Source of the DNA: Candidatus Falkowbacteria bacterium
GTDB lineage: Bacteria; Patescibacteriota; Patescibacteriia; XYB2-FULL-38-15
Assembly: GCA_016214745.1 (NCBI GenBank)
Contig: JACRNW010000016.1
Location: 591 to 64,590, forward strand
DNA: 64,000 bases
Direction of reading: 5' to 3'
Positions 9,250 to 61,688 of this stretch are shown here, one piece after another. The notes below the pieces were generated by a model. It worked only from the letters and a program-made list of their open reading frames with translations. It was not told where the DNA came from and ran no database searches. How positions within the stretch are numbered: position 1 is the first letter of the stretch; the number at the start of each line of letters is the position of its first letter. The position numbers and the translations under genes are program-made.

Positions 9250-9341
9250 TAAATATGGGGTTGACATTTCTTGAAATTTATGTAAGAATAAAGTGTTTGG
9301 TTCGTTTGCACCCCAAGAGAGGGGTGAAAGGAAGGATATAG

Positions 9342-10091
9342 ATGGAAACCAAACTGGTGGCCTTGACCATCTGTTTCGTGATCGGCGGATGCGGTCTGGA
9401 TACGGGCGGCATGGGCGAGCCGGACGACGGCGCTCTGCCCGACATCGTGGAAGAGGGCGAGCCGGACATCGGCCCGGACGAAGCCGCGACCGACGTTTCC
9501 GAAGCCGACCAAGAAGACGTGGCCGAGGATGCGGGCGAAGACGAAACGGCGGACGAGACCGAGCCCGACGAAGCATCTCCCGACGAGGCAGCCGAGGACG
9601 TCACAGACGTCCCCGACGAGACCGAGCCGGAAGACGCGGACGATGCGGCCGACGAAGCGGGCGATGAAGCAAGCGACGAAGGCGGCGAGACCGAGGACGG
9701 CGAACCCGACCCCTGCGCTCTGCCGGAAATCCCCGCCACGGGAATTTTCGTCTGGTACTGCTTCGACTACGACTTGTCCTCTCCGATGTCTCTCGAGTTC
9801 CAAGCCGAACGGGCCGGAATTCCAGTCGTGAGCTGGCGTGCTGCCCCTGGTTGCTCGACAACTCGCGGGCGGCGGCTTGAATGCACGCTCACGCCGACGG
9901 TGTGGGATGCCACCTACATCTTCAACATTCGGCTCGACCCGGGTGTTGGGATCGGGTGGTCCTGCGGGCCGGAACTTCTGGCCATCTGGGGTACGCCGCA
10001 TGTTTGGCTGGACGGAGTGGAGTTGACCGTCACATCAGTGACGAACGGCGACGGCGGCTGCAACCACAGCTTCCTGACACCCTCGCTGTAG
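9342..10091 (+). CDS. Acidic lipoprotein with a D/E-rich low-complexity region (GC-rich island 2)
   Basis: Signal peptide with lipobox (LTICFVIGGC), a long Asp/Glu-rich spacer, a C-terminal Cys-containing domain. RBS GAAAGGAAGGATATAGATG. ~68% GC. Confidence 0.6.
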   Translation: METKLVALTICFVIGGCGLDTGGMGEPDDGALPDIVEEGEPDIGPDEAATDVSEADQEDVAEDAGEDETADETEPDEASPDEAAEDVTDVPDETEPEDADDAADEAGDEASDEGGETEDGEPDPCALPEIPATGIFVWYCFDYDLSSPMSLEFQAERAGIPVVSWRAAPGCSTTRGRRLECTLTPTVWDATYIFNIRLDPGVGIGWSCGPELLAIWGTPHVWLDGVELTVTSVTNGDGGCNHSFLTPSL

Positions 10092-14641: not shown

Positions 14642-15274
14642 CTATTGTACGGCTCCTTCTCCAGTGGCCTCCACGGTAAAAATAACAACCACAATTTCCT
14701 GCCCGCCGGATTCATAGGTCACGGTGTATTGCGAGTTGCCTTTACTTAACATCAAAGATGCCTCGCTCCCGCTGACTCCGCTTGTAATAACAGTAAACCC
14801 GCGAGATGTGAACGCCGAACTTAATTTATTAAGATCGCTGGCCGTAGCGCCTCTCTTAATCGTAAATTGAACCATGCCCGAATCTTCACCCATTCCAAGA
14901 TAATTATTTAAGTAACTTGATAATTTAATGTCTCCAAAAACTTCACTAATAATCGGTCCGATGTCGTTTTTTGCCTTTGTAACAAAAGGGATATCGGCCT
15001 GAAGTTCTTCGGTCGCGTTAAATTTTTCTTCCGGCGTCTGTTCTCTCTCTTCTCCGCCTCCGGTAACTCCCGCTCCCGCGCCACCTAATCCTTGAAGTTG
15101 TTTGGCATAATCCTCTGCCTCTTTACCGGATAATCCTCCGAGCGTAGCCCAACCTCTTAATAATTGTTCGGCTGCCCGCTCCGCTTGCCAGCGTTGCCAC
15201 ATCCAGTATCCGCCGGCCAAAACCGCCACGGCCAAAACGACGATGACTGGGATAAGAGCCTTGTTTTTATTCAT
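14642..15274 (-). CDS. Hypothetical membrane-anchored protein
   Basis: N-terminal TM helix then a soluble domain. No recognisable family. Confidence 0.45.
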   Translation of the reverse strand: MNKNKALIPVIVVLAVAVLAGGYWMWQRWQAERAAEQLLRGWATLGGLSGKEAEDYAKQLQGLGGAGAGVTGGGEEREQTPEEKFNATEELQADIPFVTKAKNDIGPIISEVFGDIKLSSYLNNYLGMGEDSGMVQFTIKRGATASDLNKLSSAFTSRGFTVITSGVSGSEASLMLSKGNSQYTVTYESGGQEIVVVIFTVEATGEGAVQ

Positions 15275-15436
15275 AATTTTTCAATTTTACCTCGAAACAA
15301 AATCCGAGGTGTGTTAATAAGTTTTCTTTGTTTAATTATATCAAAATATAAAAGAAAAAACCATCAACCCGCATTCTCTTGACTACTATTCTGTGCTATA
15401 ATGGATTTAAGTTAATTGTTAACTGTCAACCGTTAA

Positions 15437-16321
15437 TTGTCACAATTTATGACTCAAAAAATTCGCAAAGTTATCATCCCGGTGGCCGGTTACGGCACAA
15501 GATTTCTCCCGGCAACCAAAGCTCAGCCAAAAGAAATGCTGCCGATCGTTGATAAACCGGTCATTCAATATATTGTTGAAGAAGCCGTCGCTTCGGGCAT
15601 TACTGACGTAATCTTGGTAACCGGCGCTTCCAAACGCGCCGTGGAAGATCATTTTGATTACAATTTTGAATTGCAAAATTGGCTTAAAAAACAAGGCAAG
15701 GAAGAAATCCGCCAGGAATTAAAAAATATCGCTGACATGGCGAATTTTATTTATATCAGACAAAAAGGCCCGTACGGCAACGCCACGCCGGTTATGAATT
15801 GTCAGCAAGTCGTCGGCAATGAACCGTTTGCCGTTCTCTCGGGTGATGATTTGATTGTAAATGGAACAAAACCGCGCTTGAAACAATTAATTGAGGCTTA
15901 TGAAAAATATGGTGATCCGGTGATTACGGCCATTAAAGTCACCAAAGAAGAAACTAGAAAATACGGCATGCTTGATGCGCAAAAAATAGAAAAAAATATT
16001 TATCAGGTCAAAAAAATCGTGGAAAAGCCCGGGCCGGAAAAAGCGCCCTCGCTTCTTGCCACGCTTTACGGCTATGTTCTAACACCGGACATTTTTGATG
16101 AACTGGAGAAATTAAAACCCGGCGCCGGCGGAGAATTATGGCTGCCGGAAGCCATCGCCGAACTTCTTAAAAAACGTCCCATTTACGCTTCCGAAGTTGA
16201 CGGCACTTATTATGATGCTGGATCAAAAATCGGTTGGCTCAAGGCCAATGTTGACCTCGCCCTGCAACGACCAGATCTAAAGCCAAGTTTTTCCAAATAT
16301 TTGAAAAAATTAAAAATATAA
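15437..16321 (+). CDS. galU: UTP--glucose-1-phosphate uridylyltransferase
   Basis: [31 protein letters not shown], the canonical GalU N-terminus. Confidence 0.9.
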   Translation: [294 protein letters not shown]

Positions 16322-16323
16322 AT

Positions 16324-16432
16324 CTACAAATTACAAATTTAGTACAAATGTACAAATTTTGATAAATATTTATTAACAGATAAAACCGCTTAGTGATTAT
16401 TTGTATATTTGTAAATGATTTGTAATTCGTAG
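16324..16432. mobile_element. MITE-like element, copy A: ~35-nt terminal inverted repeats (CTACAAATTACAAAT..TACAAAT[A/G]TACAAAT) around a ~40-nt spacer
   Basis: Left arm 16324-16358, right arm 16398-16432 in inverted orientation. Near-identical copy at 51650-51757. Confidence 0.55.
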
Positions 16433-16438
16433 TAATTT

Positions 16439-17833
16439 ATGAACAAAAAAACTTTAGCTGTTTTTCTTCTTCTCGCTTTCATTATTACCGCTGGTCCAAT
16501 CTGTAAAGGCACGCCGGTGGCGGTTCAAGAAGCGATGAAGCCCGTCAGCCTCACTTATTGGCGAGTTTTTGACGATCAAGATGCTTTTGATGAAATCATC
16601 GCTGCCTACAAAGCAATCCACCCGAATGTTTCCGTCACTTATCGCAAACTTCGCATGGAAGAATATGAAGAAACTCTTCTAAACGCTTTGGCTGAAGATC
16701 GCGGACCAGATTTATTTTCCGTTCCCAATACTTGGGTTCGCGAATATCAGACAAAAATTCTGCCAATGCCAAAATCTATCACTCTGCCTTACCAGGTAAC
16801 AACGGGCACAATCAAAAAAGAAACAACAGTTGAACTTCGAACAACCGCGACTCTTTCTCTCCGGGCCCTCCGGACTGATTTTATGGATCAAGTGGCAAAA
16901 GATGTTGTATTAAAATACCAAGCCAATCCGGAACAGCCGGCCGAAGATAGAATTTATGGTTTGCCGCTTTATCTTGATACCTTGGCGCTTTTTTACAATC
17001 GCGATACTTTAAACGCCGCGGGCATTCCCGAACCGCCCCGGAGCTGGACCGAATTTCAAGAAGACGTAAAAAAAATTGCTAAAATTGACAAACAAGGAAA
17101 TATTTTACAATCCGGTGCGGCGATTGGCACGGGCACAAACGTTGAACGAGCCCCGGACATTCTTTCACTTTTAATGATGCAAAACGGCACGGCCATGACC
17201 GATGAGGCCGGCAATGCCACTTTCGCCAACATGCCCCCCGGCTCTACTCTTACAAATCCTCCCGGCGAAGACGCTTTAGGTTTCTACACCGACTTTGCTT
17301 CGCCTTACAAAGAAGTCTACACCTGGAACGGCAACATGCCAGATTCACTTGAAGCTTTTAGCACGGGGCGAGCGGCTTTTTTCTTCGGCTATTCTTACCA
17401 CATTCCTCAAATTAAAAATCTCGCGCCCAAATTAAATTTTGCCATTGCTAAAATTCCGCAAATTGAGGGCAACCAGGAAATAAATTTTACCAATTATTGG
17501 GTGGAAACGGTTTCTGAAAAAACAAAAAATCAAAATGAGGCCTGGGATTTTCTCCAGTTCGCCGCCAAAGCGGAAAACGCTGAAAAATATTTAGCAAAAA
17601 CCAAAAAACCGACCGCTCTTCGTTCGCTTGTGGCAAGCCAAGCGGAAGATCTTGATCTTGCCGTCTTTGCTTCAGAACTTTTAACGGCCAAATCCTGGTA
17701 TCAGGGCATGGACGCGCCGGCCATGGAAAAAATCTTTAACGAGATGATTGAAAATGTGGTAGCCGGCACGCAAACCCTGAAAGAAGCGATTGGTTTAGCC
17801 CAAGGAAGAGTTAACCAGACTATTCGGCAATAA
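16439..17833 (+). CDS. Extracellular solute-binding protein (ABC-type, sugar family 1-like), secreted
   Basis: Signal peptide. 464 aa with SBP_bac_1-like composition and motifs. No adjacent permease or ATPase. Confidence 0.7.
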   Translation: MNKKTLAVFLLLAFIITAGPICKGTPVAVQEAMKPVSLTYWRVFDDQDAFDEIIAAYKAIHPNVSVTYRKLRMEEYEETLLNALAEDRGPDLFSVPNTWVREYQTKILPMPKSITLPYQVTTGTIKKETTVELRTTATLSLRALRTDFMDQVAKDVVLKYQANPEQPAEDRIYGLPLYLDTLALFYNRDTLNAAGIPEPPRSWTEFQEDVKKIAKIDKQGNILQSGAAIGTGTNVERAPDILSLLMMQNGTAMTDEAGNATFANMPPGSTLTNPPGEDALGFYTDFASPYKEVYTWNGNMPDSLEAFSTGRAAFFFGYSYHIPQIKNLAPKLNFAIAKIPQIEGNQEINFTNYWVETVSEKTKNQNEAWDFLQFAAKAENAEKYLAKTKKPTALRSLVASQAEDLDLAVFASELLTAKSWYQGMDAPAMEKIFNEMIENVVAGTQTLKEAIGLAQGRVNQTIRQ

Positions 17834-17875
17834 AGTTATTAGATATTGGAGATTAGATATTAGAAATTATAAAAT

Positions 17876-18328
17876 ATGTTTTTAAAACACAAAAAATTGA
17901 TTTTAATTATCGTCGTGGGTCTTGGGTTAGCCGTTGCTCTGCCGACTCTCGCTTCCTGGCCGGCCACGCCGCTCCTCCCTCCCTGCACTTCAAGCGGCGA
18001 TTGTGGTTTTAATGATTTTATTTTGCTCGGCATCAATTTAACTAAAATGATTTTGGGCCTGGTCGGGTCGCTTACTCTGCTTTTCTTTATTTACGGCGGC
18101 GTAATGTTTTTGCTCGCCGGCGGAAAATCGGAAATGATTGATAAAGGGAAAAAAATTATTACGAACGCCGTGATCGGCGTAGCCATAGTGCTCGGCGCCT
18201 GGATAATCGTGAACTTTGCCATTGCGGCTTTGACCGGCACGCCGGTTAGCAATGTTAAAATTTTTGGTACGGAAGATTGGTGGAAAACTCCCGGAGAGGA
18301 AACAACTAATACCAATAGCGGAACTTAA
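17876..18328 (+). CDS. VirB2/TrbC-like (T4SS-pilin-like) small membrane protein, paralog 1
   Basis: Signal peptide, then two hydrophobic helices separated by a short polar loop (YGGVMFLLAGGKSEMIDKGKKIITNAVIGV...). Shares the core with the eight downstream paralogs. Confidence 0.6.
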   Translation: MFLKHKKLILIIVVGLGLAVALPTLASWPATPLLPPCTSSGDCGFNDFILLGINLTKMILGLVGSLTLLFFIYGGVMFLLAGGKSEMIDKGKKIITNAVIGVAIVLGAWIIVNFAIAALTGTPVSNVKIFGTEDWWKTPGEETTNTNSGT

Positions 18329-18338
18329 AAAAATAAAT

Positions 18339-18965
18339 ATGAAACTCTCTAAATTCTTATTCTTTGTCATAATATTTTTTTCCGCCTTTGCGCTTTTGAC
18401 GCCGAGTGCGCTAGCAGTGCGAACCTGCACTTCTAGCACTGGCTGCGCGCCCGGTGAAAACTGTTCTGAAATTTATGGTGGAGATCAATGCGTTAATACT
18501 TCAACTGAAACAATCTACTATATAACCGGCCGCTGCAGCGGTGGAGTCGGCTCCATCGCTTGCCCTGCTGGTTTCACCTGCCAATCAATTACCCGAGGCA
18601 GATATTGTATTACAAACGAAGCGGGAATGGCCGCAACTTCATGCCCCGAGGGACAAGAACTAGTGAACGGGAGTTGCCAAATCAAAAGTGCTGCTACCAC
18701 CAGTCCGGTTGAATTCACCTCGCCCCTCGGCATGGTTTCACCCACTCAAATTCTTGGTCGGGTTATTAAAGCTGTTCTCGGTATTCTCGGCGCCATTGCC
18801 CTTTTTATGTTTGTTTGGGGCGGCCAAGGATGGATGATGTCGGGTGGCAATCCAGAAAAAATAAAAGCCGCGCGCGCGACTCTTATTTGGGCCGTCATCG
18901 GCATGGTCGTAATATTTTTAAGTTACGCCGCGGTTGATTTTATTCTCTCAGCTTTTGGAGCTTAG
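18339..18965 (+). CDS. VirB2/TrbC-like pilin paralog 2, with an N-terminal Cys-rich extracellular module
   Basis: Start moved to MKLSKFLFF. Signal peptide. Cys-rich region (CTSSTGCAPGENC...CPAGFTCQ...CPEGQELVNGSCQ). C-terminal pilin-like core FVWGGQGWMMSGGNPEKIKAARATLIWAVIGMVVIF. Confidence 0.6.
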   Translation: MKLSKFLFFVIIFFSAFALLTPSALAVRTCTSSTGCAPGENCSEIYGGDQCVNTSTETIYYITGRCSGGVGSIACPAGFTCQSITRGRYCITNEAGMAATSCPEGQELVNGSCQIKSAATTSPVEFTSPLGMVSPTQILGRVIKAVLGILGAIALFMFVWGGQGWMMSGGNPEKIKAARATLIWAVIGMVVIFLSYAAVDFILSAFGA

Positions 18966-18968
18966 AAC

Positions 18969-19541
18969 ATGAAAAAATATTTCAAACTAAAAATACCGTC
19001 TCTTATTCTCAACCCGACGATTTTATTTTTTATTTTTTTATCGGCTGGAATTCTGCTCGGGGCAACGCCCGCCCTGGGAGAATGCAATTGCTCAACCGGC
19101 GCATTTGGTTCATCCTGGACAACCACGGATCCTTGTTTCGCTGACAGCGATTGCTCTCTGCCGTGCGAACGGACTGTTCCGGGAGGCGTAACGCCTACGA
19201 GTCTATCTTATACGTGCGCTACGACAAGCGTCCCGAGCGGCGGGACAACAACTCCTGGCGCGCCGGAAAAAATTAAATTGGAAAATCCCCTTGGCGGCGG
19301 GACTGGCGTAACCTCTGTCCCACTCCTCATCGGCAATATTATCAAAACTATTTTAATGATTGTCGGCGCCCTGGCGCTCGCCATGTTTGTTTACGGCGGC
19401 TTTACTTGGCTCACCTCCGGAGGCAGCGCCGATAAAGTTAAAAAGGGCAAAGATATTTTGATTTGGGCGACTATCGGCCTCATTGTCATTTTTACGAGCT
19501 ATACTTTGGTAGACTTCTTATTAACCGCATTAGGAATTTAA
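18969..19541 (+). CDS. VirB2/TrbC-like pilin paralog 3, with Cys-rich module
   Basis: Signal peptide, CNCSTGAFGSSWTTTDPCFADSDCSLPCE module, Thr/Pro-rich linker, core MFVYGGFTWLTSGGSADKVKKGKDILIWATIGLIVIF. Confidence 0.6.
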   Translation: MKKYFKLKIPSLILNPTILFFIFLSAGILLGATPALGECNCSTGAFGSSWTTTDPCFADSDCSLPCERTVPGGVTPTSLSYTCATTSVPSGGTTTPGAPEKIKLENPLGGGTGVTSVPLLIGNIIKTILMIVGALALAMFVYGGFTWLTSGGSADKVKKGKDILIWATIGLIVIFTSYTLVDFLLTALGI

Positions 19542-19542
19542 A

Positions 19543-20223
19543 ATGTTTATCACGCGACAAAAATTTTTTACTTTAATACCCCTCTTCTCTTTTTTATTTT
19601 TCTTTTTACCTATTTTCCCGGTTGATGCCCAGGAAGAATGCCGCTGCTATGTTTATGGCAGTTTTGACCGCGAAGAAGCAACCTGCAACAGCCGGTGCCC
19701 GAGCATTTGCGGAGCAATAAGCGACCGATCCTTGGAAAATTGGAATATTGATCTTCGTCTTTCTCCCGAATGTCGCGCCGCAGACGGCCAATGGCAATGC
19801 AACTGCTATATTTCCCAAGCTTTGCGCGGCGTTTCCACTGAAGAAGCATGCAGTGATATTTGTTACGCCCTAACCGTGCCTAACGCAGAGCTAACCGGTG
19901 AATTTAGAGATTTTGGTGTGGCGGAAGAAGCAGCCCCGAAAACTGAAGAAGAAGAATTTCCAACCTACAAAATTAAATCTCCGATCGGCGAAGTGACCGG
20001 ACCGGAACTTATTGGCCGAATTATTAAAACAGTCCTTGGCGTTGTTGGCGCCCTGGCTTTGGCCATGTTTGTTTACGGCGGCTTTACTTGGTTGACCTCG
20101 GCCGGCAGTGCTGATAAAATAAAGAAAGGCAAAGATATCTTAATTTGGGCGACTATCGGCCTTATTGTCATTTTTACCAGTTATACTTTAGTGGATTTTG
20201 TTTTACGAGCCTTTGGATTATAA
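19543..20223 (+). CDS. VirB2/TrbC-like pilin paralog 4, with a different Cys-rich module
   Basis: Signal peptide, ECRCYVYG...CNSRCPSICG...CNCY module, acidic linker. The C-terminal core is ~85% identical at DNA level to paralog 3. Confidence 0.6.
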   Translation: MFITRQKFFTLIPLFSFLFFFLPIFPVDAQEECRCYVYGSFDREEATCNSRCPSICGAISDRSLENWNIDLRLSPECRAADGQWQCNCYISQALRGVSTEEACSDICYALTVPNAELTGEFRDFGVAEEAAPKTEEEEFPTYKIKSPIGEVTGPELIGRIIKTVLGVVGALALAMFVYGGFTWLTSAGSADKIKKGKDILIWATIGLIVIFTSYTLVDFVLRAFGL

Positions 20224-20301
20224 ACAGTTACACAAATTATCTAAAAAACTTAAACAAATTAATTGTTAACTGTTAAATGTTAGCAGTTATCCCGAAAGGG
20301 G

Positions 20302-20676
20302 GTGAAGAAAATGAAAAAACTATTTATCTGTTTGACGGTGCTCGCTCTTTTGACTCCAGTTTTGGTCTCCGCGCAAACGAATGACATCTTGGGCCTGAAT
20401 GTCATTAACAATGCCAATATCGGCTTGCAAGCTTCAGATCCGAGAGCTGTTGCCGCGAAAATCATTAACGTGGCGTTGGGCTTCTTGGGCATCATCGCCG
20501 TGGTCATTGTTCTTTACGGAGGCTTTGTGTGGATGACGGCGGCTGGCAACGAGGAAAGAATTTCCAAAGCGAAACAAATCCTTACTGCCGGTATCATCGG
20601 CTTAGTCATTATCGTAATGGCTTGGGCAATCGCCTCTTATGTTGTAAGAACTTTGATGAACGTTACAAACACCTAA
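20302..20676 (+). CDS. VirB2/TrbC-like pilin paralog 5
   Basis: Signal peptide plus core LYGGFVWMTAAGNEERISKAKQILTAGIIGLVII. RBS GAAAGGGGGTGAAGAAAATG. Confidence 0.6.
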   Translation: MKKMKKLFICLTVLALLTPVLVSAQTNDILGLNVINNANIGLQASDPRAVAAKIINVALGFLGIIAVVIVLYGGFVWMTAAGNEERISKAKQILTAGIIGLVIIVMAWAIASYVVRTLMNVTNT

Positions 20677-20682
20677 TTTAAA

Positions 20683-20715
20683 AATGGGGTGGGGGTAAAT
20701 CCCCACCCCATTCTC
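20683..20715. terminator. GC hairpin (GGGGTGGGGG taaat CCCCACCCC), terminator-like
   Basis: Perfect 9-10 bp stem after paralog 5. A-run upstream and T-rich downstream. Confidence 0.5.
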
Positions 20716-20863
20716 GATTGTCTTGTATGTCCCGTTAGAAGTTCTTGACAGAAAAATTTTATCAAAAATTTTTCTTTATAAAACTAACGGCACATAAAAT
20801 TTAAACGACACCACTGTTATAAAGATACAACAATAAATTAAATCGACAAACTTCTAACGGGAT

Positions 20864-21295
20864 ATGTTTTTAAAAATAGAAAAAATAAAAATTTTTAAAT
20901 TTATCTGCGTCGCAGCGACTCTTTTACTTTTATTCGGCGCGAACCTTGCTCTTGCTCAACCCACTGACGGCGAAAAAACTGATAGCGATGCAAGTGGCGT
21001 CCGCTCTGGCCTAGAAAATACGGCTGAAGCCGCCGGAATTCCCAAAACGGGCGGCGAAGAAGCCATCCCAAATCTCATCGGCAGCATTATTATGGGCGCG
21101 CTCGGTTCTGTCGGCATCATTTTTTTAATTTTAATGATCATTGGCGGCGTAATGTGGATGACTGCTTCCGGCAATGAAGAACGAGTCAACAAAGCAAAGG
21201 GTTTGATTACTAACGCGGTGATCGGCATGATTATTGTTTTCTCCGCTTACGCCATTACTTATTTTGTGACTGAAACTTTACTTGGAACCAGATGA
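20864..21295 (+). CDS. VirB2/TrbC-like pilin paralog 6
   Basis: Core IIGGVMWMTASGNEERVNKAKGLITNAVIGMIIVFSAYAITYFV. Confidence 0.6.
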   Translation: MFLKIEKIKIFKFICVAATLLLLFGANLALAQPTDGEKTDSDASGVRSGLENTAEAAGIPKTGGEEAIPNLIGSIIMGALGSVGIIFLILMIIGGVMWMTASGNEERVNKAKGLITNAVIGMIIVFSAYAITYFVTETLLGTR

Positions 21296-21795
21296 AAAAC
21301 TTAAAAAAAATTCTAATCATTTTTTTCCCTTTAGCTGTTTTAGCCGCCGTATTTTTCTTTTTTAAAGACACCGCTTTGGCACAATCAATTTTCGGCGGGC
21401 TTGAAGGCGCGCGAAAAACAGCCGGATTTTCCGAAGATACAAATATTTATTCCAGAATTGGAATGTTAATTTCTGTTTTTCTCGGTTTTGTCGGAGTGAT
21501 TTTTTTGGGCCTTACTCTTTACGGCGGATTTATTTGGATGATTGCTCGCGGCAATGAACAGGAAATTGAAAAAGCAAAAAAATTAATTGAAGCGGCCGTA
21601 ATCGGCCTCGCCATAGTCTTCGCCGCTTATGCCATTACTTATTTTGTGACCTCGCGTTTGCTTTCCACGAGCAGCGGGAGCGGCGCGGCGACCTGCGCTG
21701 AAGGCACAACTCTTTGCACCTGCCCCGGAGCCGGCTCCGCGTGTCTTGACCCCGGCGAATCTTGCGAAGAATTATGCGGGTCGGTTACTCCTTAA
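21292..21795 (+). CDS. VirB2/TrbC-like pilin paralog 7, with a C-terminal Cys-rich tail
   Basis: Core LYGGFIWMIARGNEQEIEKAKKLIEAAVIGLAIVFAAYAITYFV plus tail ATCAEGTTLCTCPGAGSACLDPGESCEELCGSV. Overlaps paralog 6 by 4 nt. Confidence 0.6.
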   Translation: MKNLKKILIIFFPLAVLAAVFFFFKDTALAQSIFGGLEGARKTAGFSEDTNIYSRIGMLISVFLGFVGVIFLGLTLYGGFIWMIARGNEQEIEKAKKLIEAAVIGLAIVFAAYAITYFVTSRLLSTSSGSGAATCAEGTTLCTCPGAGSACLDPGESCEELCGSVTP

Positions 21796-21819
21796 TACTT
21801 TAAATTAATTAAATATTTT

Positions 21820-22245
21820 ATGGCTAAATTTAAAAAAATATTTATTGCTTGTTGCTTTGTCTTGGCACTTTTCACTCTTGCGGTGCCCCTTCTTTCTTCT
21901 GCCGTGGCTGAACCCGGAGACGCTTTAAACAGATTGAAAGAAGTTGGTGGTTCGGCCTATGGCGTCGGCGAGGAAGAACCGAGAGATGTCACGGAAATTG
22001 TCGGCGGAATAATCAAAACCGCTCTCTCGATTATGGGCATAGTTGCTGCAATTTTAATCATTTATGCCGGTTATGTTTGGATGACGGCCCGCGGCAAAGA
22101 AGAACGTGTCACCAAAGCCAAAGAAACTTTGGAGGCGGCAATTATCGGTTTAATTATTATCATGGCGGCCTACGCCTTTACCTACTTTGTAGTGGATCGT
22201 ATAATGCAAGCTTCAAGTACTCCAACTACAACACCAACACCTTAA
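21820..22245 (+). CDS. VirB2/TrbC-like pilin paralog 8
   Basis: Core IYAGYVWMTARGKEERVTKAKETLEAAIIGLIIIMAAYAFTYFV. Thr/Pro tail. Confidence 0.6.
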   Translation: MAKFKKIFIACCFVLALFTLAVPLLSSAVAEPGDALNRLKEVGGSAYGVGEEEPRDVTEIVGGIIKTALSIMGIVAAILIIYAGYVWMTARGKEERVTKAKETLEAAIIGLIIIMAAYAFTYFVVDRIMQASSTPTTTPTP

Positions 22246-22254
22246 ATTAAAAAT

Positions 22255-22638
22255 ATGAAATTTATCTCTAAAAAATTATTTATTTCCTCATTCCTGATTT
22301 TAATCCTCCTCTCCGCCCTGCCGGCCTTTGCTCAGATAGAAGGATTAGAAAACTTCGGCAAAGCAGCCGACTACGTTGCTGATACAAGTGCTACTCCCAA
22401 GGAGCCGGCAGAAATCGTCGGAGGGCTTATCAGTACCGTTCTCAGTGTTTTGGGTGTTATTGCCGTTGTTTTAATTATCTATGCCGGTTTTATTTGGATG
22501 ACTGCGGCGGGCAACACGGAAAAAATTGATAAGGCAAAAAAAATTCTCGGAAATGCCGTGATTGGATTAATTATTATTCTAATGGCATACAGCATCACTT
22601 ATTTTGTCACGAGATCTTTATTGAACGCCACAAGATAA
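22255..22638 (+). CDS. VirB2/TrbC-like pilin paralog 9
   Basis: Core IYAGFIWMTAAGNTEKIDKAKKILGNAVIGLIIILMAYSITYFV. Confidence 0.6.
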   Translation: MKFISKKLFISSFLILILLSALPAFAQIEGLENFGKAADYVADTSATPKEPAEIVGGLISTVLSVLGVIAVVLIIYAGFIWMTAAGNTEKIDKAKKILGNAVIGLIIILMAYSITYFVTRSLLNATR

Positions 22639-22653
22639 ATAAAATTTTAGTTT

Positions 22654-22692
22654 AAAAAAATCGGGCGAGCGCTCTACGCAGAGTGCTCGCCC
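22654..22692 (-). terminator. Intrinsic terminator of the GC-rich lipoprotein operon (minus strand)
   Basis: GGGCGAGCGCTCT acgc AGAGTGCTCGCCC, a 13-bp stem with one G-U pair, followed on the minus strand by T7. Confidence 0.75.
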
Positions 22693-22713
22693 TTGTTGTT
22701 GTGTCCTCCCTCG

Positions 22714-23247
22714 TCACCGGCCAGCCGAGGTCGGCGAAACTGTTCCGCAGTCCAGGTTGCCGATCTCGACGCCGTGATGCCCCCGCCCGGTGGCGTCGAT
22801 CCAGAAACTCCTGACGCAATTCGCCACGTGCTGCAAGGGCGGCGGACCGATGTAGCCCTTGGCCTTGATCTCGTGCTGACCGACCGCGTCCGCGATGACC
22901 CAACAGGTTTCGCCCGGGGGCAAGAACCCACCGGTCTCCGGTAGATCGATGGCCGGTTCATCGATCCAAATCCGAAGAGAAATCTCGGTCTCGTTCGTGA
23001 CCGGCAAGCACCTCGGCCCCTCGCACCAGGGCGGCGGCCGGTGCAAAAAGCACACGTTCGACGGCGGTACCTCGTAGGCCCCGGACAGCGGATCCACCGG
23101 ATACGCCGCGTAAGCGGGGTAAGCAGCCGGCAGGCCACCTACCATGTAGGGTGCCTGAGCCGGGTAGGTCCCGTAACCGTAGCTGCCGCCCCAGAGGCCG
23201 CAACCGAGCGAAGCGACCACGAACATCATCGAGACGAACTTCGTCAT
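22714..23247 (-). CDS. Lipoprotein, hypothetical (GC-rich island 3, gene 2 of operon)
   Basis: Signal peptide with lipobox (VVASLGC). RBS GGAAGGGAGACAGCCATG. ~66% GC. Start overlaps the upstream gene's stop (ATGA). Confidence 0.6.
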   Translation of the reverse strand: MTKFVSMMFVVASLGCGLWGGSYGYGTYPAQAPYMVGGLPAAYPAYAAYPVDPLSGAYEVPPSNVCFLHRPPPWCEGPRCLPVTNETEISLRIWIDEPAIDLPETGGFLPPGETCWVIADAVGQHEIKAKGYIGPPPLQHVANCVRSFWIDATGRGHHGVEIGNLDCGTVSPTSAGR

Positions 23248-23651
23248 GGCTGTCTCCCTTCCAAGGCGTCAAGCCGCCGATCGTAATCGTCGGCGTCTTC
23301 TTCGAGATCCTCCGCCCTCTCTTCGAGTGCTGGATCCCGAGTCTGGCCGTAGCCGTACTGGCCGTAGCCGTAGTAGTTCGACGAACCACCGTAACCGTAC
23401 CCGCCGGAGTAACCTCTGTAGCAGCGTTCCGGATGGCCGCCGCGCCTTTCGCCCTGGCTTCGGAGGCAGCTGCCTTCGTCCCGGATCCGATCGGCCTGGG
23501 CCGACGTCAGGTCGGCCGCCGACATTTCCATGGGACCGGGTCCCATGAACCCGTTGGCCTCGTAGGTCATGCCGCCGCTCCGAAGACTCGTCTGAGCCGT
23601 GAAGCAGCCGGACATCGCAAACATCACGAACAACGCCGCGAAAAGCCTCAT
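23244..23651 (-). CDS. Gly/Tyr-rich lipoprotein, hypothetical (GC-rich island 3, gene 1)
   Basis: Start reassigned to MRLFAALFVMFAMSGCF (ATG at 23651) because it has the RBS AAGGGAGGTGTGGAATG. Lipobox AMSGC. GYSGGYGYGGSSNYYGYGQYGYGQ low-complexity region. Confidence 0.6.
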   Translation of the reverse strand: MRLFAALFVMFAMSGCFTAQTSLRSGGMTYEANGFMGPGPMEMSAADLTSAQADRIRDEGSCLRSQGERRGGHPERCYRGYSGGYGYGGSSNYYGYGQYGYGQTRDPALEERAEDLEEDADDYDRRLDALEGRQP

Positions 23652-23733
23652 TCCACACCTCCCTTGGGGCCCCAAGCCCCATGTTTTAAAAGAAAAGAAC
23701 CATCCGTACCCCCATTAAGGAGCAGGACATTTT

Positions 23734-23762
23734 ACTGTAGCATAAAAACCTATTTTCGTCAA
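23734..23762 (-). promoter_or_regulatory. Candidate sigma70 promoter for the lipoprotein operon (TTGACG-17-TACAGT, minus strand)
   Basis: Hexamers read on the minus strand. A 14-bp perfect palindrome CTTGGGGCCCCAAG (23663-23676) lies between promoter and RBS and may be an operator. Confidence 0.45.
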
Positions 23763-23873
23763 GAGCTTGAAAAACTTTATAATTAGCCAAAATTTTAACT
23801 TCTGCCCGGCCAGATTTTTCCCTTTTCCACAACTTTTTGTGGATAAATTGTTTATAACCGCATAAAATTCACT

Positions 23874-23907
23874 TGACAAGCCTAAAATACCCTGCTAAAT
23901 TAAAGGT
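23874..23907 (+). promoter_or_regulatory. Candidate promoter (TTGACA-17-TAAATT) for rpoB with a ~330-nt structured leader
   Basis: Hexamers read directly. The leader contains a 56-nt imperfect palindrome (23930-23986). Confidence 0.4.
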
Positions 23908-24237
23908 AATAAGGGGCGTTAAGCCCCGTGTTGACTGCGCTCACTCGGAAATGAAAGCGATTTCATTTCTCTCGCTCGCTTGTCAATAATAAAGTCCCCT
24001 ACTTTACTTGTTGTAAAATTACGCAAGGAACACCCAGGCAAATCGTCCTGGAAGTTCAAAAAAAGTGAGGGATAATCCTGCCAAAGTCCCGTAGAACGCG
24101 GGACGCAAATATTAAATGCATACACGGCAGTGGAAAAAACTTGATTTATCCTCTTAAAGCTCACCCAAAAAGAGGAGGGAGCTCTTTTTGTGTTTTTTTG
24201 TCAAATATTAAAAATAATTTAAAATAATTTTATAAAT

Positions 24238-27200
24238 ATGCCCACCGAAGTCGCACCGCGAAAAGTTTTTACAAAAATTTCAGAGGTCATTCCTCTGCCA
24301 GACTTGATTGAACTCCAAAAAAAATCTTACGAATGGTTTTTTAAAAAGGGCCTGTCCGAACTTTTTGAAGAAATTTCTCCCATCAGAGATATTATGGGCC
24401 GAGATCTTGAACTTTATTTTTCGGAATATTATCTTGATGAGCCGAAATTTGATGAAATCACGAGCAAGGCAAAAAATGTTAATTTTGAAGCACCGCTTCG
24501 CGTCAAAGCACGGCTGACCAACAAAAAAACCGGCGAACTTAAAGAGCAAGAAATTTATCTCGGCGACATGCCTTTAATGACTGATCGGGGAACTTTTATT
24601 ATCAATGGCATTGAACGCGCGGTTGTTTCGCAACTTGTCCGCTCGGCCGGTGTATTTTTTACTTCAGAAACTCATCATGGCCGAAGATCATATGGCGCGA
24701 AAATTATTCCGAACCGCGGCGCCTGGCTTGAAATTGAAACCGATCAATCTGGCGTGATCTGGGTAAAAATTGATCGCAAAAGAAAAGTCGCCGTTACCTC
24801 GCTTCTCCGCGCTTTTGGTTATGGAATTGACGACGAAATAATTTCTCTTTTTAAAGACGTTGATACCGACCAGGAGACAAGCTACATAAAAAATACTCTG
24901 GAAAAAGATATTGCTCATTCGGAAGACGAAGGCTTAAAAGAAGTTTACAAAAGAATCCGTCCCGGAGATCTCGCCACGGTAGACAACGCCCGCTCGCTGA
25001 TTTATGCCATGTTTTTTCGTTTTGACCGTTATGATTTCAGCATGGTTGGCCGTTACAAGTTCAATCAACGTTTCGGCATTGGCGGCGAAGTGGAAGATAC
25101 AAAAGAAAACAGAATTTTCCGCCGGGAAGATTTGGTAACTATCATCAAAGAAATTATCCGATTAAATATTACCCAGGAACCGGCTGACGATATTGATCAC
25201 TTGGGCAATCGCCGTATCAGAGCGGTCGGAGAATTGGTACAAAATCGTTTCCGCATCGGATTGGCCAGAATGGAACGCATCGTGAAAGACCGGATGAGTA
25301 CGATTGACATTCTCGCGCTTACTCCGAATAAATTGATTAACGCAAAACCGGTCATCGGCGCGGTCAAAGAATTTTTCATGTCTTCTCAGTTATCGCAATT
25401 TATGGACCAAACAAATCCTTTGGCCGAACTGGAACATAAACGCCGACTTTCCTCCATGGGTCCGGGCGGTCTCTCCCGCGAACGAGCCGGCTTTGAAGTC
25501 CGCGACGTGCATCCGACTCACTACAGCCGCATCTGCCCGATCGCGACTCCTGAAGGCCCGAATATCGGTTTGGTCGGCCATCTTTCTTCTTACGCCCGCG
25601 TCAACGAGTACGGTTTTATTGAAGCGCCTTACCGAAAAGTAATTCGTGAATTGCCAAACGACGGCAAATCGGCAATCGGGGAAATTTTGCGGGAAGAAGT
25701 CGCGGGAGAAAAAGCTGAAACAAAAATTACCAAAGAAATCGCCTCAAATTTAGCCAAAGAAAAAACTTTAAAAACTATCCAAGTTAAACCTCATGTCACG
25801 GATGAAGTGGTTTATTTAAATGCTTTCACTGAAGAAAAAGCCGTCACCACGCCGGCCACCACGCCGATTGATGAAAACGGTTATTTTTTGGCGGAAAAAA
25901 CCGGCGTCCGAAAATACGGCAAGCCAAGCATTGAATATGTTTGGAATGTTGATTACATGGATGTTTCGCCAAAACAAATCGTAAGCGTCGGCACTGCCTT
26001 GATTCCATTTTTAGAACATGATGATGCTATCCGCGCGCTTATGGGAACAAACATGCAACGTCAGGCCGTACCGGTCATCCGGCCGGAAGCGCCGATTGTC
26101 GGCACGGGTATAGAAGATCGCGCCGCGAGAGATTCTGGCCACGTAAAAATTGCCGAAGAAGACGGCCGGGTCGTGGAAGTTGAGGGCGACAAAGTTCATG
26201 TTGTGGAAAAAAATGATAAATTCAAAATTTATCGGCTGAATAAATTCGCCCGCTCCAACGCTTCAACCTGTATCAACCAGCGGCCAATCGTAAATAAAGA
26301 TCAAAAAATTAAAAAGGGCGACGCTCTGGCCGACGGTCCGGCCACGGAGGGCGGCGAATTGGCGCTCGGCCAAAATATGCTGGTGGCTTTCATGGCCTGG
26401 GAAGGATATAACTATGAAGACGCGGTTATTATTTCTGAAAAAGTTGTCCGCGATGATCGCTTTACTTCAATCCATATTGAAAATTATCAAATTGACGTCC
26501 GCGACACCAAACTCGGTCCGGAAATCGTGACCAACGACATTCCAAACGTCAGTGAAGAAAAATTAAAAAATCTTGATGAGAACGGCATTGTAAGAATCGG
26601 CGCCAAAGTTTCTTCCGGCGATATTTTGGTTGGAAAAATTACGCCAAAAGGCGAAACTGAACTTTCCGCGGAAGAAAAATTGCTCCGCGCCATCTTCGGC
26701 GAAAAAGCCCGCGATGTCCGCGACACCTCACTTTACTTGGAGCACGGCGAACATGGCAAAGTGGTTGATATTAAAATTTTCTCCCAAGAAACCGGCGATA
26801 AATTACCGCCTGGTGTTATTAAATCCATCCAAGTCGCGGTGGCTGACATGAGAAAACTTCAAGTCGGCGACAAATTGGCCGGCCGCCACGGCAACAAAGG
26901 CGTTGTTTCTAAAATTGTTCCGATTGAAGATATGCCCTTCCTCCCGACCGGCGTACCGATTGATATTATTCTCTCCCCGCTCGGCGTTGTCTCTCGTATG
27001 AACATCGGCCAAATTTTGGAAACTCATCTTGGAATCGCCGCGAAAACTTTGGGATACAAAACTATTACCCCGATCTTGGATGGTATTCCCGAAGAAACTA
27101 TCCGGCAAGAACTGATAAAGGCTGGTTTTCCCGGAGACGGAAAAATTACTCTTTATAACGGCAAGACCGGCGAATCTTTTGATAAAAAAACCACCGTCGG

Positions 27201-47871: not shown

Positions 47872-49020
47872 TCACTTTTTAATCGGCATTACGATGTAGA
47901 GATAATCGCTGCCCTCAACTTTTGGCCTCAAGAGTGACGGGCTGTCGGCTGAAGTTAATTCCAGCGCCACTTCTTCTGATTCCATGGCTCCGAGCCCGTC
48001 CAAGAGATATCTATAATTTAAAGTAATTTCATTTTCTTTACCCTCAACTTCCGCTTCAAGTTTTACGGTGTTCTCACCAAATTGAGAATTGGCCGAAGAC
48101 AAAACCAATTCGCCAACTTTTTCTTTTCCCGGTTTAAAACCGAAGGTGACATCAAAAATTCCGGGCTTGGCGAAAAGACTCGCGGTTTTTACGACTTTAA
48201 TAAGTTCGTTTCGGTTAAAATTGGCGCGCGTCTCATAACTCGCCGGAATAATTTGTTTGTAATCGGGATATTGGCCGTCAATCACCCGCGAAACAAGATC
48301 CACACCGTTTAGGGAAAACATTATTTGATTTTCCGCGAGATATATTTTTACCAAATTCGGCGCTTCGGGATCTTCACTGTCGCGGAAAACGGAGAGAATT
48401 CTTAAAACTTCCTGCATGGTCCTGGCTGGCACAATCACGTCACGGGAATTGGCATTTTCTCCGGCGGAAAGTTCCAGGGTTTTTTCCGCCAAACGATAAC
48501 TGTCGGTCGCGGCCACCACTACTTTTTTCTTTTGGCCGTCAAAATGCATTAAAAGACCGCTGATTTCCGGCCTGATTTCGTTTGTGGAAGTCGCAAAAAC
48601 CACTTGATTCACGGCTTCGCGAAATTTTCCAATGTCTAAACTATAAGCCGCTTCCTTGGCCACTTCCGGAATCAAAGGAAACTCGCTTGTTGCGGCGCCC
48701 CGAATCCGCGTTTCATAATTTTTACACCTAATTTCCAGTGTTTGGTCCTGCAAACTTAAATCAATCTTGTCGTTCGGCAAGGAACTGACGTAGTCGGCAA
48801 AAAGTTTCGCCGGCAGCGTTATGGCGCCGTCCTCTTCTATTTTTCCCCTCACCTCGCACTTAATGCCAATTTCAAGATTTGTCGCGAGAAGCGTAATAAT
48901 CCCCCCATCAGCTTTAAACAAAACGTTGTTTAAAATGGGGAGATTAATGTTTTTACTCGCGATGTGGCTTGAAATTAAGAGACCGCGATTTAAGTTTTCC
49001 TGTGTACAGGATAGTTTCAT
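47872..49020 (-). CDS. dnaN: DNA polymerase III beta sliding clamp
   Basis: 382 aa. MKLSCTQENLNRGL... matches the DnaN N-terminus and three-domain length. Confidence 0.9.
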   Translation of the reverse strand: MKLSCTQENLNRGLLISSHIASKNINLPILNNVLFKADGGIITLLATNLEIGIKCEVRGKIEEDGAITLPAKLFADYVSSLPNDKIDLSLQDQTLEIRCKNYETRIRGAATSEFPLIPEVAKEAAYSLDIGKFREAVNQVVFATSTNEIRPEISGLLMHFDGQKKKVVVAATDSYRLAEKTLELSAGENANSRDVIVPARTMQEVLRILSVFRDSEDPEAPNLVKIYLAENQIMFSLNGVDLVSRVIDGQYPDYKQIIPASYETRANFNRNELIKVVKTASLFAKPGIFDVTFGFKPGKEKVGELVLSSANSQFGENTVKLEAEVEGKENEITLNYRYLLDGLGAMESEEVALELTSADSPSLLRPKVEGSDYLYIVMPIKK

Positions 49021-49268
49021 ATCAATACAATATTTTATTTTATATTTTTATATTTAATAGTAATAAGCGTTTTGATTTCTGTGGATTATTTTTCTAAAAC
49101 TTTTTTGTTTAAAGGAAATTTTGATGTTTTGGTCTGTGGAAAGTTTTTTTGATTTTGTGGACGAGTGGTGGGGAAAATTTTTCGGAAGAGTTTTTTTGAT
49201 TTTTTATTCCCACCTCGCCAAATTTTAGACACAGCTTTTTCCACAGGAGTTCGGGATAACTTTTGGTT
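49021..49268. promoter_or_regulatory. Candidate oriC: AT-rich DNA-unwinding element plus at least 4 DnaA-box-like 9-mers between dnaA and dnaN
   Basis: TGTGGATTA (49080-88), TGTGGAAAG (49134-42), TGTGGACGA (49156-64), TTTTCCACA (49237-45), each with <=2 mismatches to TTATCCACA. AT-rich tract 49021-49070. Confidence 0.5.
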
Positions 49269-50633
49269 TTAATTGTTGTATAGTCTTTGTTTTATTTGTT
49301 CTATTTCTTGTTTTAGCCGATCGCTTGTTTCAACTTCATGAGTAATTTTAAGAAAAGCGTGCATTGCCGTTGTATGATCGCGGCCGCCGAGCTCGTGACC
49401 AATGGCCGGGTAAGAACTTTCTAATTCTTTGCGCATCAAATACATTACGATCTGTCGGGGAAAAGCCAAACGCTTCTCGCGGCTTTGTCCCAAAAGTTCA
49501 TCAAGTTTCAAGTCGTAAAATGCCGCTACAGTATTGATTAATTGTTTTGGCGTGGCCGATTTTCTTCCGGAGGTAACGTGGCTTTCCAAAATTCTTTTTA
49601 CCAGCTCCAGAGAAATTGGAGTATGCTGAAACTGTTCGTAAGCAATAATTTTGTTTAAGGCGCCCTCAAGCTCGCGGATATTATTTTGAATGATAACGGC
49701 GATATGATTTACGATTTCTTGATCCAGTTCCAGCCCCTTTTCGGCGCATTTTGCTTTTAAAATAGCAATACGCGTTTCATAATCTGGTTGGGAAATATCG
49801 GCGATCATGCCCCATTCAAAGCGGGAAATCAATCGTTGTTCCAGCGCCGGAATCGCTTTTGGCGGCCGGTCTGAAGTCATGACGATTTGTTTGTCTGCCT
49901 GATGAAGATCATTAAAAGTATGAAAAAATTCTTGCTGCGTTCCGTCTTTCGCGGCCATAAATTGCACATCATCAATTAAGAGCAAGTCGGGCGAGCGGTA
50001 AGTTTGTTTAAATCTTTCAGTGGTTCTGGATCTGATGGCTTGGATATAATCATTGGTAAATTTTTCGCTTGTGGTGTAAAGAACTTTTTTATTTGGGTCA
50101 GCTTCCAAAATCGCGTGGCCTATCCCCTGCAGGAGATGGGTTTTGCCAAGTCCAACGCCGCCGTAAATAAAAAGCGGGTTGTAAGTGCTCTTGCCCGGAT
50201 TTTTCGCCACGGCTTGCGCGGCAGCATGAGCCAGTTCATTATTTTTCCCCACCACGAAACTTGGGAAAGTATATTTAGGATTAAGTCCAAATCTATTGGC
50301 GGGCGCTTCGGAGGCAACGGAAGGCGCTGCGGCACGAACCGCGGTCGCGGCAGCCGGCACATCGGTTTTGCCGATTTGCGGTTTAACCAGTTCTACTTTG
50401 TAAACAACTTCTTTAATGTGGCCGCCGATGATTTTTTGTAAAGTTTTTAAAATTGATTGGTGATATTTGTTTTCCAACCACGCTTTGGTAAAAGTATTGG
50501 GTACGCCCACAATCACTTTTTCTCCATCAACAAAAGAGACGGCCGTGTTTTTGAACCAAGTGGTGAAGTTCGCTTTGGTGAGGTTCAGTTCCAGTTCACC
50601 AAGAACTGCTTGCCAAAGTTGTTGGTTAGTCAT
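49269..50633 (-). CDS. dnaA: Chromosomal replication initiator DnaA
   Basis: AAA+ Walker A GGVGLGKTHL and the C-terminal DnaA box-binding domain. Confidence 0.95.
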   Translation of the reverse strand: MTNQQLWQAVLGELELNLTKANFTTWFKNTAVSFVDGEKVIVGVPNTFTKAWLENKYHQSILKTLQKIIGGHIKEVVYKVELVKPQIGKTDVPAAATAVRAAAPSVASEAPANRFGLNPKYTFPSFVVGKNNELAHAAAQAVAKNPGKSTYNPLFIYGGVGLGKTHLLQGIGHAILEADPNKKVLYTTSEKFTNDYIQAIRSRTTERFKQTYRSPDLLLIDDVQFMAAKDGTQQEFFHTFNDLHQADKQIVMTSDRPPKAIPALEQRLISRFEWGMIADISQPDYETRIAILKAKCAEKGLELDQEIVNHIAVIIQNNIRELEGALNKIIAYEQFQHTPISLELVKRILESHVTSGRKSATPKQLINTVAAFYDLKLDELLGQSREKRLAFPRQIVMYLMRKELESSYPAIGHELGGRDHTTAMHAFLKITHEVETSDRLKQEIEQIKQRLYNN

Positions 50634-53549: not shown

Positions 53550-53949
53550 TGTTGTTTTAGAAAATTAGATTAGGTTTTCTTTGGTAAGTTTAAAGAAAAT
53601 TCATTTTTTTGTCAACGGCAAAAGAGGAAATCCACAAAATATCCACAGGGGGGCTAATCCTCGAATAAACCCCAGCACCAAAGCCCGGAGATGGGCGGAT
53701 ATTAATCAATATATAAATCACGGAAACGCCTGCGGCTTTCTTTTACTAAAATTGTTTGTTTGGAGAAAGGCTTGGTGCGGGGTTACCGCGCCCGACTTCG
53801 CCTTGACACGTAATTTGTGAGTAATTATGGATAGTTCTTTAAAGAAACTAATAAACAATTTTATTGGAAAAATGGCGAAGTCAAGGCGGGCGGGTTAACT
53901 GCCAAAAAATTTTCCGTGGCAAGGCCTTGAAAATTTTTGGCCAGTTAAT

Positions 53950-53980
53950 AAAAAAAGCCTCACGATGTGTAGTCGTGGGG
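53950..53980 (-). terminator. Intrinsic terminator of GC-rich island 4 (minus strand)
   Basis: CCTCACGA tgtgtag TCGTGGGG stem, followed on the minus strand by T6. Confidence 0.6.
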
Positions 53981-53986
53981 CGTGGT

Positions 53987-54247: not shown

Positions 54248-54254
54248 GGTCTCC

Positions 54255-61659: not shown

Positions 61660-61688
61660 TTGACTTTTTATCTAAATCATGTTAATAT
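61660..61688 (+). promoter_or_regulatory. Candidate promoter (TTGACT-17-TAATAT) for the DGR target gene
   Basis: Hexamers read directly, ~90 nt upstream of the ATG. Confidence 0.45.

Follow-up and report, generated by a model that had tools for sequence, protein, structure and literature searches.

A nine-gene array of VirB2-like type IV secretion system (T4SS) pilin paralogues, of a kind already described in Patescibacteria, occupies positions 17876-22638 of the 64-kb window analysed here, a term that denotes the whole stretch of 64,000 nucleotides. The DNA derives from a 66,173-bp contig of a metagenome-assembled genome that NCBI files under Candidatus Falkowbacteria, class ABY1, Patescibacteria (candidate phyla radiation, CPR), with locus tags of the HZB93_ series. 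Arrays of this kind have been published; what is added here is the conservation of the single slots, the replacement of heads on a constant anchor, and the linkage of the array to a solute-binding protein (SBP) gene across ABY1. It is likely that the nine proteins are VirB2-like pilins of a T4SS whose machinery is encoded elsewhere and that they contribute to a host-contact structure. Host recognition and exploitation are central issues in the biology of CPR/Patescibacteria, and among the machineries for it only the T4SS, with its pilin series, has been demonstrated to be essential in a cultivated member.

The array consists of nine consecutive genes on the plus strand, in a chromosomal setting and at coordinates that match the list of open reading frames (ORFs); the paralogues are numbered as slots 1-9 in array order, and the scores given below are those of the Pfam family PF18895. 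In slot 1 (17876-18328; 150 aa; 36.7 bits), the core (aa 47-122) lies between a short N-terminal stretch with 2 Cys and a C-terminal tail of 28 aa; this is the most divergent of the paralogues, yet well kept between species. Slots 2-4 carry Cys-rich heads in front of the core. Specifically, slot 2 (18339-18965; 208 aa; 44.9 bits) has a 10-Cys head at aa ~28-133 (nt ~18420-18737) and its core at aa 134-208, slot 3 (18969-19541; 190 aa; 44.9 bits) has a 6-Cys head at aa ~38-115 and its core at aa 116-189, and slot 4 (19543-20223; 226 aa; 41.4 bits) has a 10-Cys head at aa ~30-151 and its core at aa 152-225. The mechanical ORF of slot 2 opens at 18252; the ATG at 18339, which yields a 208-aa protein 100% identical to MBI5072055.1, is most likely the start. 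Slot 5 (20302-20676; 124 aa from a GTG at 20302, with an alternative ATG at 20311; 39.9 bits) is headless and the most conserved of all slots, and slot 6 (20864-21295; 143 aa; 37.1 bits) is without a Cys-rich head. In slot 7 (21292-21795; 167 aa; 32.8 bits) the core at aa 51-126 is followed by a 6-Cys C-terminal tail at aa 127-167 (nt ~21670-21792), slot 8 (21820-22245; 141 aa; 38.5 bits) ends in a Thr/Pro-rich C-terminal tail, and slot 9 (22255-22638; 127 aa; 38.4 bits) is headless and the fastest-evolving. The intergenic gaps from slot 1 to slot 9 measure 10, 3, 1, 78, 187, -4, 24 and 9 bp, an operon-like spacing.

Hydropathy profiles reveal three hydrophobic segments in all nine proteins, corresponding to the N-terminal signal and two C-terminal helices. 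The signal peptides are of the Sec type and finish with Ala-x-Ala-like ends, a short Lys-rich loop joins the helices of the hairpin, and the alignment of the cores contains invariant Gly, Leu and Ile positions. A hidden Markov model (HMM) of the core, run against the ORFs of the window, retrieves exactly the nine array ORFs and nothing else. A previous sequence-only reading of this DNA had described nine same-strand genes whose products begin with a signal peptide, continue with a variable region and end in a core of two hydrophobic helices, with N-terminal modules of 6-10 Cys each in paralogues 2, 3 and 4 and a C-terminal Cys-rich module in paralogue 7. This architecture was recovered throughout, with 10, 6 and 10 Cys in paralogues 2, 3 and 4 and 6 in the tail of paralogue 7; the 2 Cys of paralogue 1 come in addition.

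The same reading had placed the proteins in the VirB2/TrbC-like pilin family, and the profile searches bear this out. All nine proteins score above the gathering threshold of PF18895 (T4SS_pilin), with 32.8-44.9 bits against 26.6 and E-values from 7e-8 to 1e-11; moreover, database homologues are precomputed as PF18895 and several orthologues are named "pilin" by NCBI. The TrbC/VirB2 family PF04956 gives sub-threshold matches for seven of the nine, the best with 20.5 bits (paralogue 9) against a gathering score of 27.9, and these matches cover the last two thirds of the profile, which is the corresponding region. Some database homologues match both families, which is consistent with remote homology. 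Among NCBIfam models, NF045849 (Mbov_0395) is the best match for each of the nine, with 11.4-39.2 bits, in every case below the cut-off of 40 and in paralogues 6 and 9 narrowly so. A remote relative that aligns to paralogue 9 is encoded on a plasmid of Pontibacillus (Bacillota); genes for a VirB4-like ATPase of the CD1110 family and for a peptidoglycan hydrolase follow 4 kb downstream of it, and its position beside this ATPase ties the family to T4SS clusters of monoderm bacteria. The homologues belong to Buchanan-, Falkow- and Magasanikbacteria, all Patescibacteria, in agreement with the CPR origin proposed before. The AlphaFold2 model of paralogue 9 (alignment of 69 sequences) is a helical hairpin with helices at 51-83 and 88-126 and a predicted local distance difference test score (pLDDT) of at least 90, and in the modelled core of paralogue 2 the helices span aa 135-167 and 172-205.

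Conserved slots and replaced heads

The nine slots are old, stably maintained and, where measured, under purifying selection. They are retained one to one and in the same order in three related genomes, namely the closed 886-kb relative OZ246416.1 (loci L001/L008) and two further relatives (L007 and L009). Strict positional orthology to L001 holds for all nine, with diagonal alignment scores of 340-777 and off-diagonal scores of 105-333, and OZ246416.1 has the same gene order around the array (typA, galU, SBP, nine pilins, two lipoproteins, rpoB, rpoC, yebC). Identities to the L001 orthologues are, for slots 1-9, 87, 73, 64, 72, 91, 81, 71, 79 and 56%, against 88-95% for the flanking proteins, and the cores of the slots are 59-96% identical across L007, L008 and L009 (73-96% in L007 and L009). 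The ratio of nonsynonymous to synonymous substitution rates (dN/dS) relative to L001 is 0.09-0.17 in the seven slots measured (0.107 in slot 1) and 0.036-0.071 in SBP, galU, rpoB and typA; the array evolves two to four times faster than the neighbouring genes. Within the array, by comparison, the proteins are 27-38% identical to paralogue 1, with a mean column identity of ~30% and pairwise local identities of 28-62%, where the highest value belongs to the pair 3/4 (125 aa aligned). The label "hypervariable", which had been given to the array as a whole, does not fit one-to-one orthologues in three genomes and the dN/dS values of the seven slots compared with L001. Because the slots are old and individually conserved, each is expected to have its own role, as major or accessory subunit, rather than to be an interchangeable spare.

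Most of the diversification is found in the outward heads of certain slots, where close relatives have entirely different heads on a near-unchanged anchor. The case is most direct for slot 2. Among its orthologues, the C-terminal ~85 aa are 91-99% identical in the closest subset and 66-99% identical across the 14 compared, and they are preceded by at least six unrelated N-terminal heads, i.e., the 10-Cys head of the window, one with 4 Cys that resembles a coiled coil, and four more. At the DNA level, the comparison of loci L037 and L007 gives 88-97% identity in the SBP gene and 86-95% in the slot-2 core, and 39-51% in the ~370-bp head, which is the random level; conserved flanks around a head at random level indicate a clean head replacement. 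In slot 4 there are at least two head types: full-length matches occur only in P0160-P0163, and the other orthologues share the core alone (84-93% identical), their heads being longer and containing about 20 Cys. A head type other than that of the window is seen in L007, L008 and L009. The head of slot 3 is kept in L007 (61% identity over 95 aa) and largely different in L008 and L009, and the L001 orthologue of slot 7 shares the 6-Cys tail. The module swapping proposed by the sequence-only reading is hence seen directly in slot 2 and indicated in slot 4. Variation of this pattern would be expected of a part that recognises a variable partner surface.

As to the origin of the heads, an exhaustive search with the slot-2 head alone found only orthologous pilins; matches to giant cadherin-like proteins consist of short low-complexity Cys repeats and were judged non-homologous. 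The AlphaFold2 model of this head, based on 10 sequences, has a pLDDT of ~45-59. Compared with one another, the heads of slots 2, 3 and 4 and the tail of slot 7 give alignment scores no better than those of shuffled sequences (z below 1.5), and a CxC...C...C spacing common to slots 3 and 4 is an impression only. Loci of the Magasanikbacteria type contain very large pilin fusions, in stop-to-stop ORFs of up to 561 aa with 53 Cys (L023 9771-11453, L024 17933-19426, L015 8737-9999 and L028 8478-9968), all of which end in the same PF18895-like core, so that the head-on-anchor design is taken much further there.

Paralogues 3 and 4 require separate consideration, since a ~230-bp, ~85% identical 3' segment had been reported for them and attributed to recent duplication. 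The shared segment exists, at 19318-19541 and 20000-20223; its second copy starts at 20000 rather than at 19990, and the identity is 75.9% over 224 bp, rises to 81% in a stretch of 188 bp and reaches 86-87% only across the central 100-150 bp. The two cores form the most similar pair of the array, with 83% amino acid identity and a dS of about 1.3, equal to that between orthologues of different species. Moreover, each core groups with its own orthologue: the identity between the window and L001 is 85% for slot 3 and 89% for slot 4, and that between slots 3 and 4 inside L001 is 75%. On the basis of the dS and the orthologue grouping, gene conversion and recent duplication are rejected and the duplication is placed before the separation of these species; the similarity of the two paralogues reflects the constraint on the hairpin.

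The solute-binding protein and the genomic surroundings

The gene immediately preceding the array in the window order (16439-17833, plus strand) encodes a secreted or anchored SBP of the SBP_bac_1, sugar-binding type (PF01547, 1.2e-30; weak matches to GanS, MalE and UgpB); the sequence-only reading had noted a secreted SBP gene here and called it "lone". There is no ABC permease or ATPase gene nearby. The view of an incidental neighbour is contradicted by the conservation of the linkage. In a survey in which loci were retrieved with the SBP as query, with one genome per species, pilin genes directly follow the SBP gene in 25 of 25 CPR orthologues with downstream sequence (34-90% identity), and the arrays uncut by contig ends comprise 7-14 pilin genes; in seven loci of the Magasanikbacteria type, pilin genes flank the SBP gene on both sides. 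Pilin genes are absent at one SBP locus of 29% identity and at three non-CPR loci. SBP gene and array thus stay together in Buchanan-, Falkow- and Magasanikbacteria alike, and galU lies upstream of the SBP gene in nearly all related loci. The downstream flank of the array varies by lineage, with rpoB here and DUF2079, PPDK, MGDG synthase or PNPase elsewhere (NYN and CARDB proteins are also encoded downstream of related arrays), and these divergent flanks indicate that the linkage is more than general synteny. The statement has a direction: the SBP is always found with an array, and the reverse is unsupported since the loci were fetched via the SBP; two arrays of other CPR lineages are without this SBP. 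Judging from gene linkage, the SBP probably acts together with the array, with adhesin, ligand sensor and nutrient capture as candidate roles.

The nearest genomes by SBP identity are labelled Buchananbacteria or Patescibacteria group. OZ246416.1, OZ246414.1 (L031) and many records with CAZ and CAY prefixes bear the title "uncultured Gammaproteobacteria bacterium", which looks like mislabelling at the level of the deposit, as gene content and closest relatives are clearly those of Patescibacteria (ABY1). In three loci (L012 and L014, which differ in their record titles, and L029, which has the Falkowbacteria label), ~2 kb of non-pilin genes are inserted between the first pilin gene and the remaining array; the insert of L012 (11845-13908) includes a protein with HTH_25 and Glucodextran_B domains and an S-adenosylmethionine (SAM) methyltransferase.

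The surroundings of the array are of the housekeeping type, in the order ruvB, typA, galU, SBP, array, two lipoprotein-like genes, rpoB, rpoC and yebC, followed further on by glycogen genes, PBP1, dnaN and dnaA. The galU gene (UTP-glucose-1-phosphate uridylyltransferase; 15437-16321, plus strand) scores 327.5 bits against a cut-off of 326.8 with TIGR01099, and dnaN and dnaA (47872-50633) lie about 27 kb from the array. In locus L039, from another CPR lineage, a six-gene pilin array is located about 3-4 kb from dnaN/dnaA, which echoes a published remark that T4SS genes in Patescibacteria tend to sit near the origin.

Downstream of slot 9, a terminator-like scan found a strong GC-rich hairpin with a 13-bp stem and a T-rich tract (22663-22692, plus strand), between the convergent stops of slot 9 and of the adjacent lipoprotein-like gene, and it likely marks the end of the transcription unit. 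Slots 5 and 6 are separated by the longest gap within the array (20677-20863; 187 bp). An imperfect hairpin located there (20740-20785), with a TTGACA motif in it, may be an internal promoter or attenuator, in which case the array would form two transcription units. An Rfam scan of 15000-24500 gave zero matches. The two lipoprotein-like genes (22714-23247 and 23244-23651, minus strand) are convergent to the array, encode Gly/Tyr/Pro-rich proteins with the lipoboxes ASLGC and AMSGC, and have no match in Pfam and NCBIfam scans. They lie in an island of 60% GC (22640-23700) in a genome of 44% GC, with a GC content at third codon positions (GC3) of 0.75-0.80 against 0.42-0.46 in the neighbours, and are placed alike in L001 (~30% identity; GC3 0.81-0.82), L003 and L007 (83 and 76% identity); the pair thus evolves fast and yet retains a GC3 that looks foreign. 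Four more GC-rich islands (56-70% GC) occur at 600-2300, 9300-10000, 53900-54300 and 61700-62600. The first contains genes for OMP decarboxylase (854-1750; GC3 0.85) and for a phosphoribosyltransferase (1764-2387; GC3 0.80), and these pyrimidine-synthesis genes could, from their composition, have been acquired horizontally from a high-GC donor. The ORF at 9342-10091 encodes an acidic lipoprotein-like product with the lipobox IGGC, the one at 61660-62655 has a GC3 of 0.85, and neither has a Pfam match.

Assembly, host contact and the competing explanations

The likely reading, in which the array supplies the VirB2-like subunits of a T4SS, implies the following sequence of steps. The proteins would be exported by the Sec pathway and their signal peptides cleaved; the hairpin would then insert into the membrane such that its two ends are outside and only the charged loop points to the cytoplasm, as suggested by the biology of VirB2 and TraA and by the positive-inside rule. 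In this orientation the heads that precede the core in slots 2-4, and likewise the tail that follows it in slot 7, would face outward, and their even Cys numbers suggest extracellular domains stabilised by disulphides. The subunits would be pulled out of the membrane and built into a pilus or another surface structure by a T4SS of the monoderm type (VirB4, VirB6, VirB3, TrsD) encoded elsewhere in the genome, and this structure would be used in host-cell contact, with the head alleles setting specificity. A function as adhesin or in host attachment would be plausible.

Several observations weigh against this reading. VirB4, VirB6, VirB3 and the coupling protein were not found in the window, and profile scans agree with the earlier statement that it contains no VirB4/VirD4 ATPase. 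Likewise, there are no T4SS machinery genes within 10 kb of the eight related loci inspected, and two further CPR arrays are also without an adjacent gene for VirB4, VirB6, VirB3 or the coupling protein. A T4SS pilus has been observed in no Patescibacterium, and the FEMS 2025 review treats it as a possibility only. On the structural side, Foldseek searches of the PDB with the hairpin of paralogue 9 gave no match at E of 0.001 or lower, the top matches being generic hairpins (CnrX, ATP synthase subunit c), and the PDB sequences, searched with a profile, provided no link to solved VirB2/TraA structures; a two-helix hairpin is too simple for such searches to discriminate. Lastly, the head domains are modelled at pLDDT below 60, and their disulphide-bonded, adhesive nature is what we infer. 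The distance from virB4 is not disqualifying, since in PMC12102498 pilin genes are near virB4 in only 1135 of 1948 assemblies; in the displayed rows of its Table S1, "Presence of VirB4 = Yes" applies to all ABY1 Buchanan-, Falkow- and Magasanikbacteria, and the T4SS loci of ABY1 are said there to sit with comF, recG and radA.

A more specific proposal, which we advance tentatively and consider rather doubtful, is that the galU-SBP-pilin cluster represents a dedicated partner-recognition module of ABY1 that is genetically uncoupled from the T4SS. Its scaffold of about nine VirB2-like subunits, each specialised, would be constant, and the disulphide-rich heads on display in slots 2-4 and 7 would be exchanged between strains by recombination, in a manner likened to phage receptor-binding proteins, and would determine the host range; the co-inherited SBP would function as a pilus-associated adhesin or ligand sensor.

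The T4SS may also play no part at all, the nine proteins being hairpin anchors that display small extracellular domains and act with the SBP in substrate capture or in the organisation of the cell surface. This explanation would account for the missing machinery beside this and the related arrays inspected, for an SBP gene tightly linked to, or embedded in, the array, for the housekeeping and envelope surroundings (galU here, MGDG synthase or DUF2079 in relatives), and for a pilus that has been observed in no Patescibacterium. It is nevertheless unlikely, as the family is defined by T4SS pilins and has remote Bacillota relatives inside conjugation clusters that contain VirB4, the pilin series of Southlakia lies within a T4SS cluster and is essential together with it, and CPR pilin arrays without SBP_bac_1 indicate that the SBP is no general requirement.

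Far less probable is a repertoire for antigenic or phase variation, that is, a set of interchangeable paralogues of which one or few are expressed at once and which turn over rapidly under pressure from phages or host defences. The low identity among paralogues (mean column identity again ~30%) and the heads swapped between relatives would suit such a repertoire, and VirB2 paralogue arrays of Bartonella and Anaplasma are read in this way in PMC12102498. Against it stand the retention of all nine slots, one to one and in the same order, in three other genomes, the purifying selection on the seven slots measured against L001 and the antiquity of the similarity between paralogues 3 and 4. In addition, none of the nine genes lacks a start or a signal peptide of its own, the gaps between them (-4 to 187 bp) are operon-like, and a repeat search found no silent cassettes and no invertible or long recombination repeats, only the diverged cores. 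That nine distinct slots are so strictly kept speaks for subunits that are non-redundant and not alternatives to one another. Lastly, pilins or pseudopilins of a type IV pilus (T4P), assembled by PilB/PilC after cleavage by a prepilin peptidase, come to mind as CPR bacteria have T4P systems important for episymbiosis and the word "pilin" invites confusion, but this identity is as good as dismissed by the absence of a class III prepilin signal (G|F/M-T-L-x-E), by mature proteins that lack an N-terminal hydrophobic helix and have instead paired C-terminal ones, and by zero matches to Pfam T4P families at E of 1 or lower.

The array offers nothing categorically new and three testable handles, i.e., slot conservation, head swapping and SBP linkage. 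The paralogues are individually conserved slots and not a fluid repertoire, the swappable heads on a constant anchor point to the likely determinants of specificity, and the SBP, co-inherited with the array across the whole class, is nominated as candidate partner protein.

Comparison with known systems

The closest counterparts are the arrays surveyed by Quinonero-Coronel et al. 2025 (PMC12102498), who used PF18895 and PF04956 and detected, in 383 Patescibacteria assemblies, 441 arrays with 2-11 VirB2-like genes each and a within-array identity of 25% on average and 54% at most. The array of the window falls under the published definition, with at least two tandem VirB2-like genes in a Patescibacterium and high divergence among the paralogues. 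It shares with these arrays the tandem PF18895/PF04956-type genes, their number, the low identity of paralogues, and a chromosomal, relaxase-free context that is often not far from dnaA. It differs in that it belongs to ABY1 and is not near virB4, whereas the paper highlights Microgenomatia and Saccharimonadia; the searchable text of the paper makes no mention of SBP linkage, Cys-rich head fusions, slot-by-slot orthology or head replacement.

The classical pilins, VirB2 of the Agrobacterium T pilus, TraA of the F pilus and TrbC of RP4, have in common with the nine proteins the signal peptide, the two hydrophobic helices, the short charged loop, and termini that are both predicted to point outward. 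Conversely, they belong to diderm systems, lack large terminal domains and are usually encoded by one gene per system, and the matches of the array to their family PF04956 are only sub-threshold. The Mbov_0395/MMCAP2_0565 proteins of Mycoplasma integrative and conjugative elements and of Bacillota plasmids (NF045849) are the best NCBIfam match of the nine paralogues, but they are single-copy, reside within mobile conjugation modules, and define a family whose cut-off the array does not reach. The VirB2 arrays of Bartonella and Anaplasma resemble the present one in the tandem amplification and diversification of a pilin gene in a host-associated bacterium; however, these are diderm animal pathogens in which the arrays are read as antigenic variation, whereas here the slots are stable and heads are replaced.

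The most instructive comparison is with Candidatus Southlakia epibionticum ML1, in which the pilin series of the T4SS cluster is essential (Wang et al. 2023, PMC10633639; reviewed in PMC12857230). In both cases a monoderm CPR bacterium encodes several VirB2-like pilins that are structurally similar and divergent in sequence; six of them lie inside the T4SS cluster SEML1_0006-0019 in Southlakia, whereas nine are found here, apart from T4SS genes and adjoining an SBP gene. The essentiality of the Southlakia pilins suggests non-redundant subunits, in agreement with the one-to-one conservation of the slots in the array described here.

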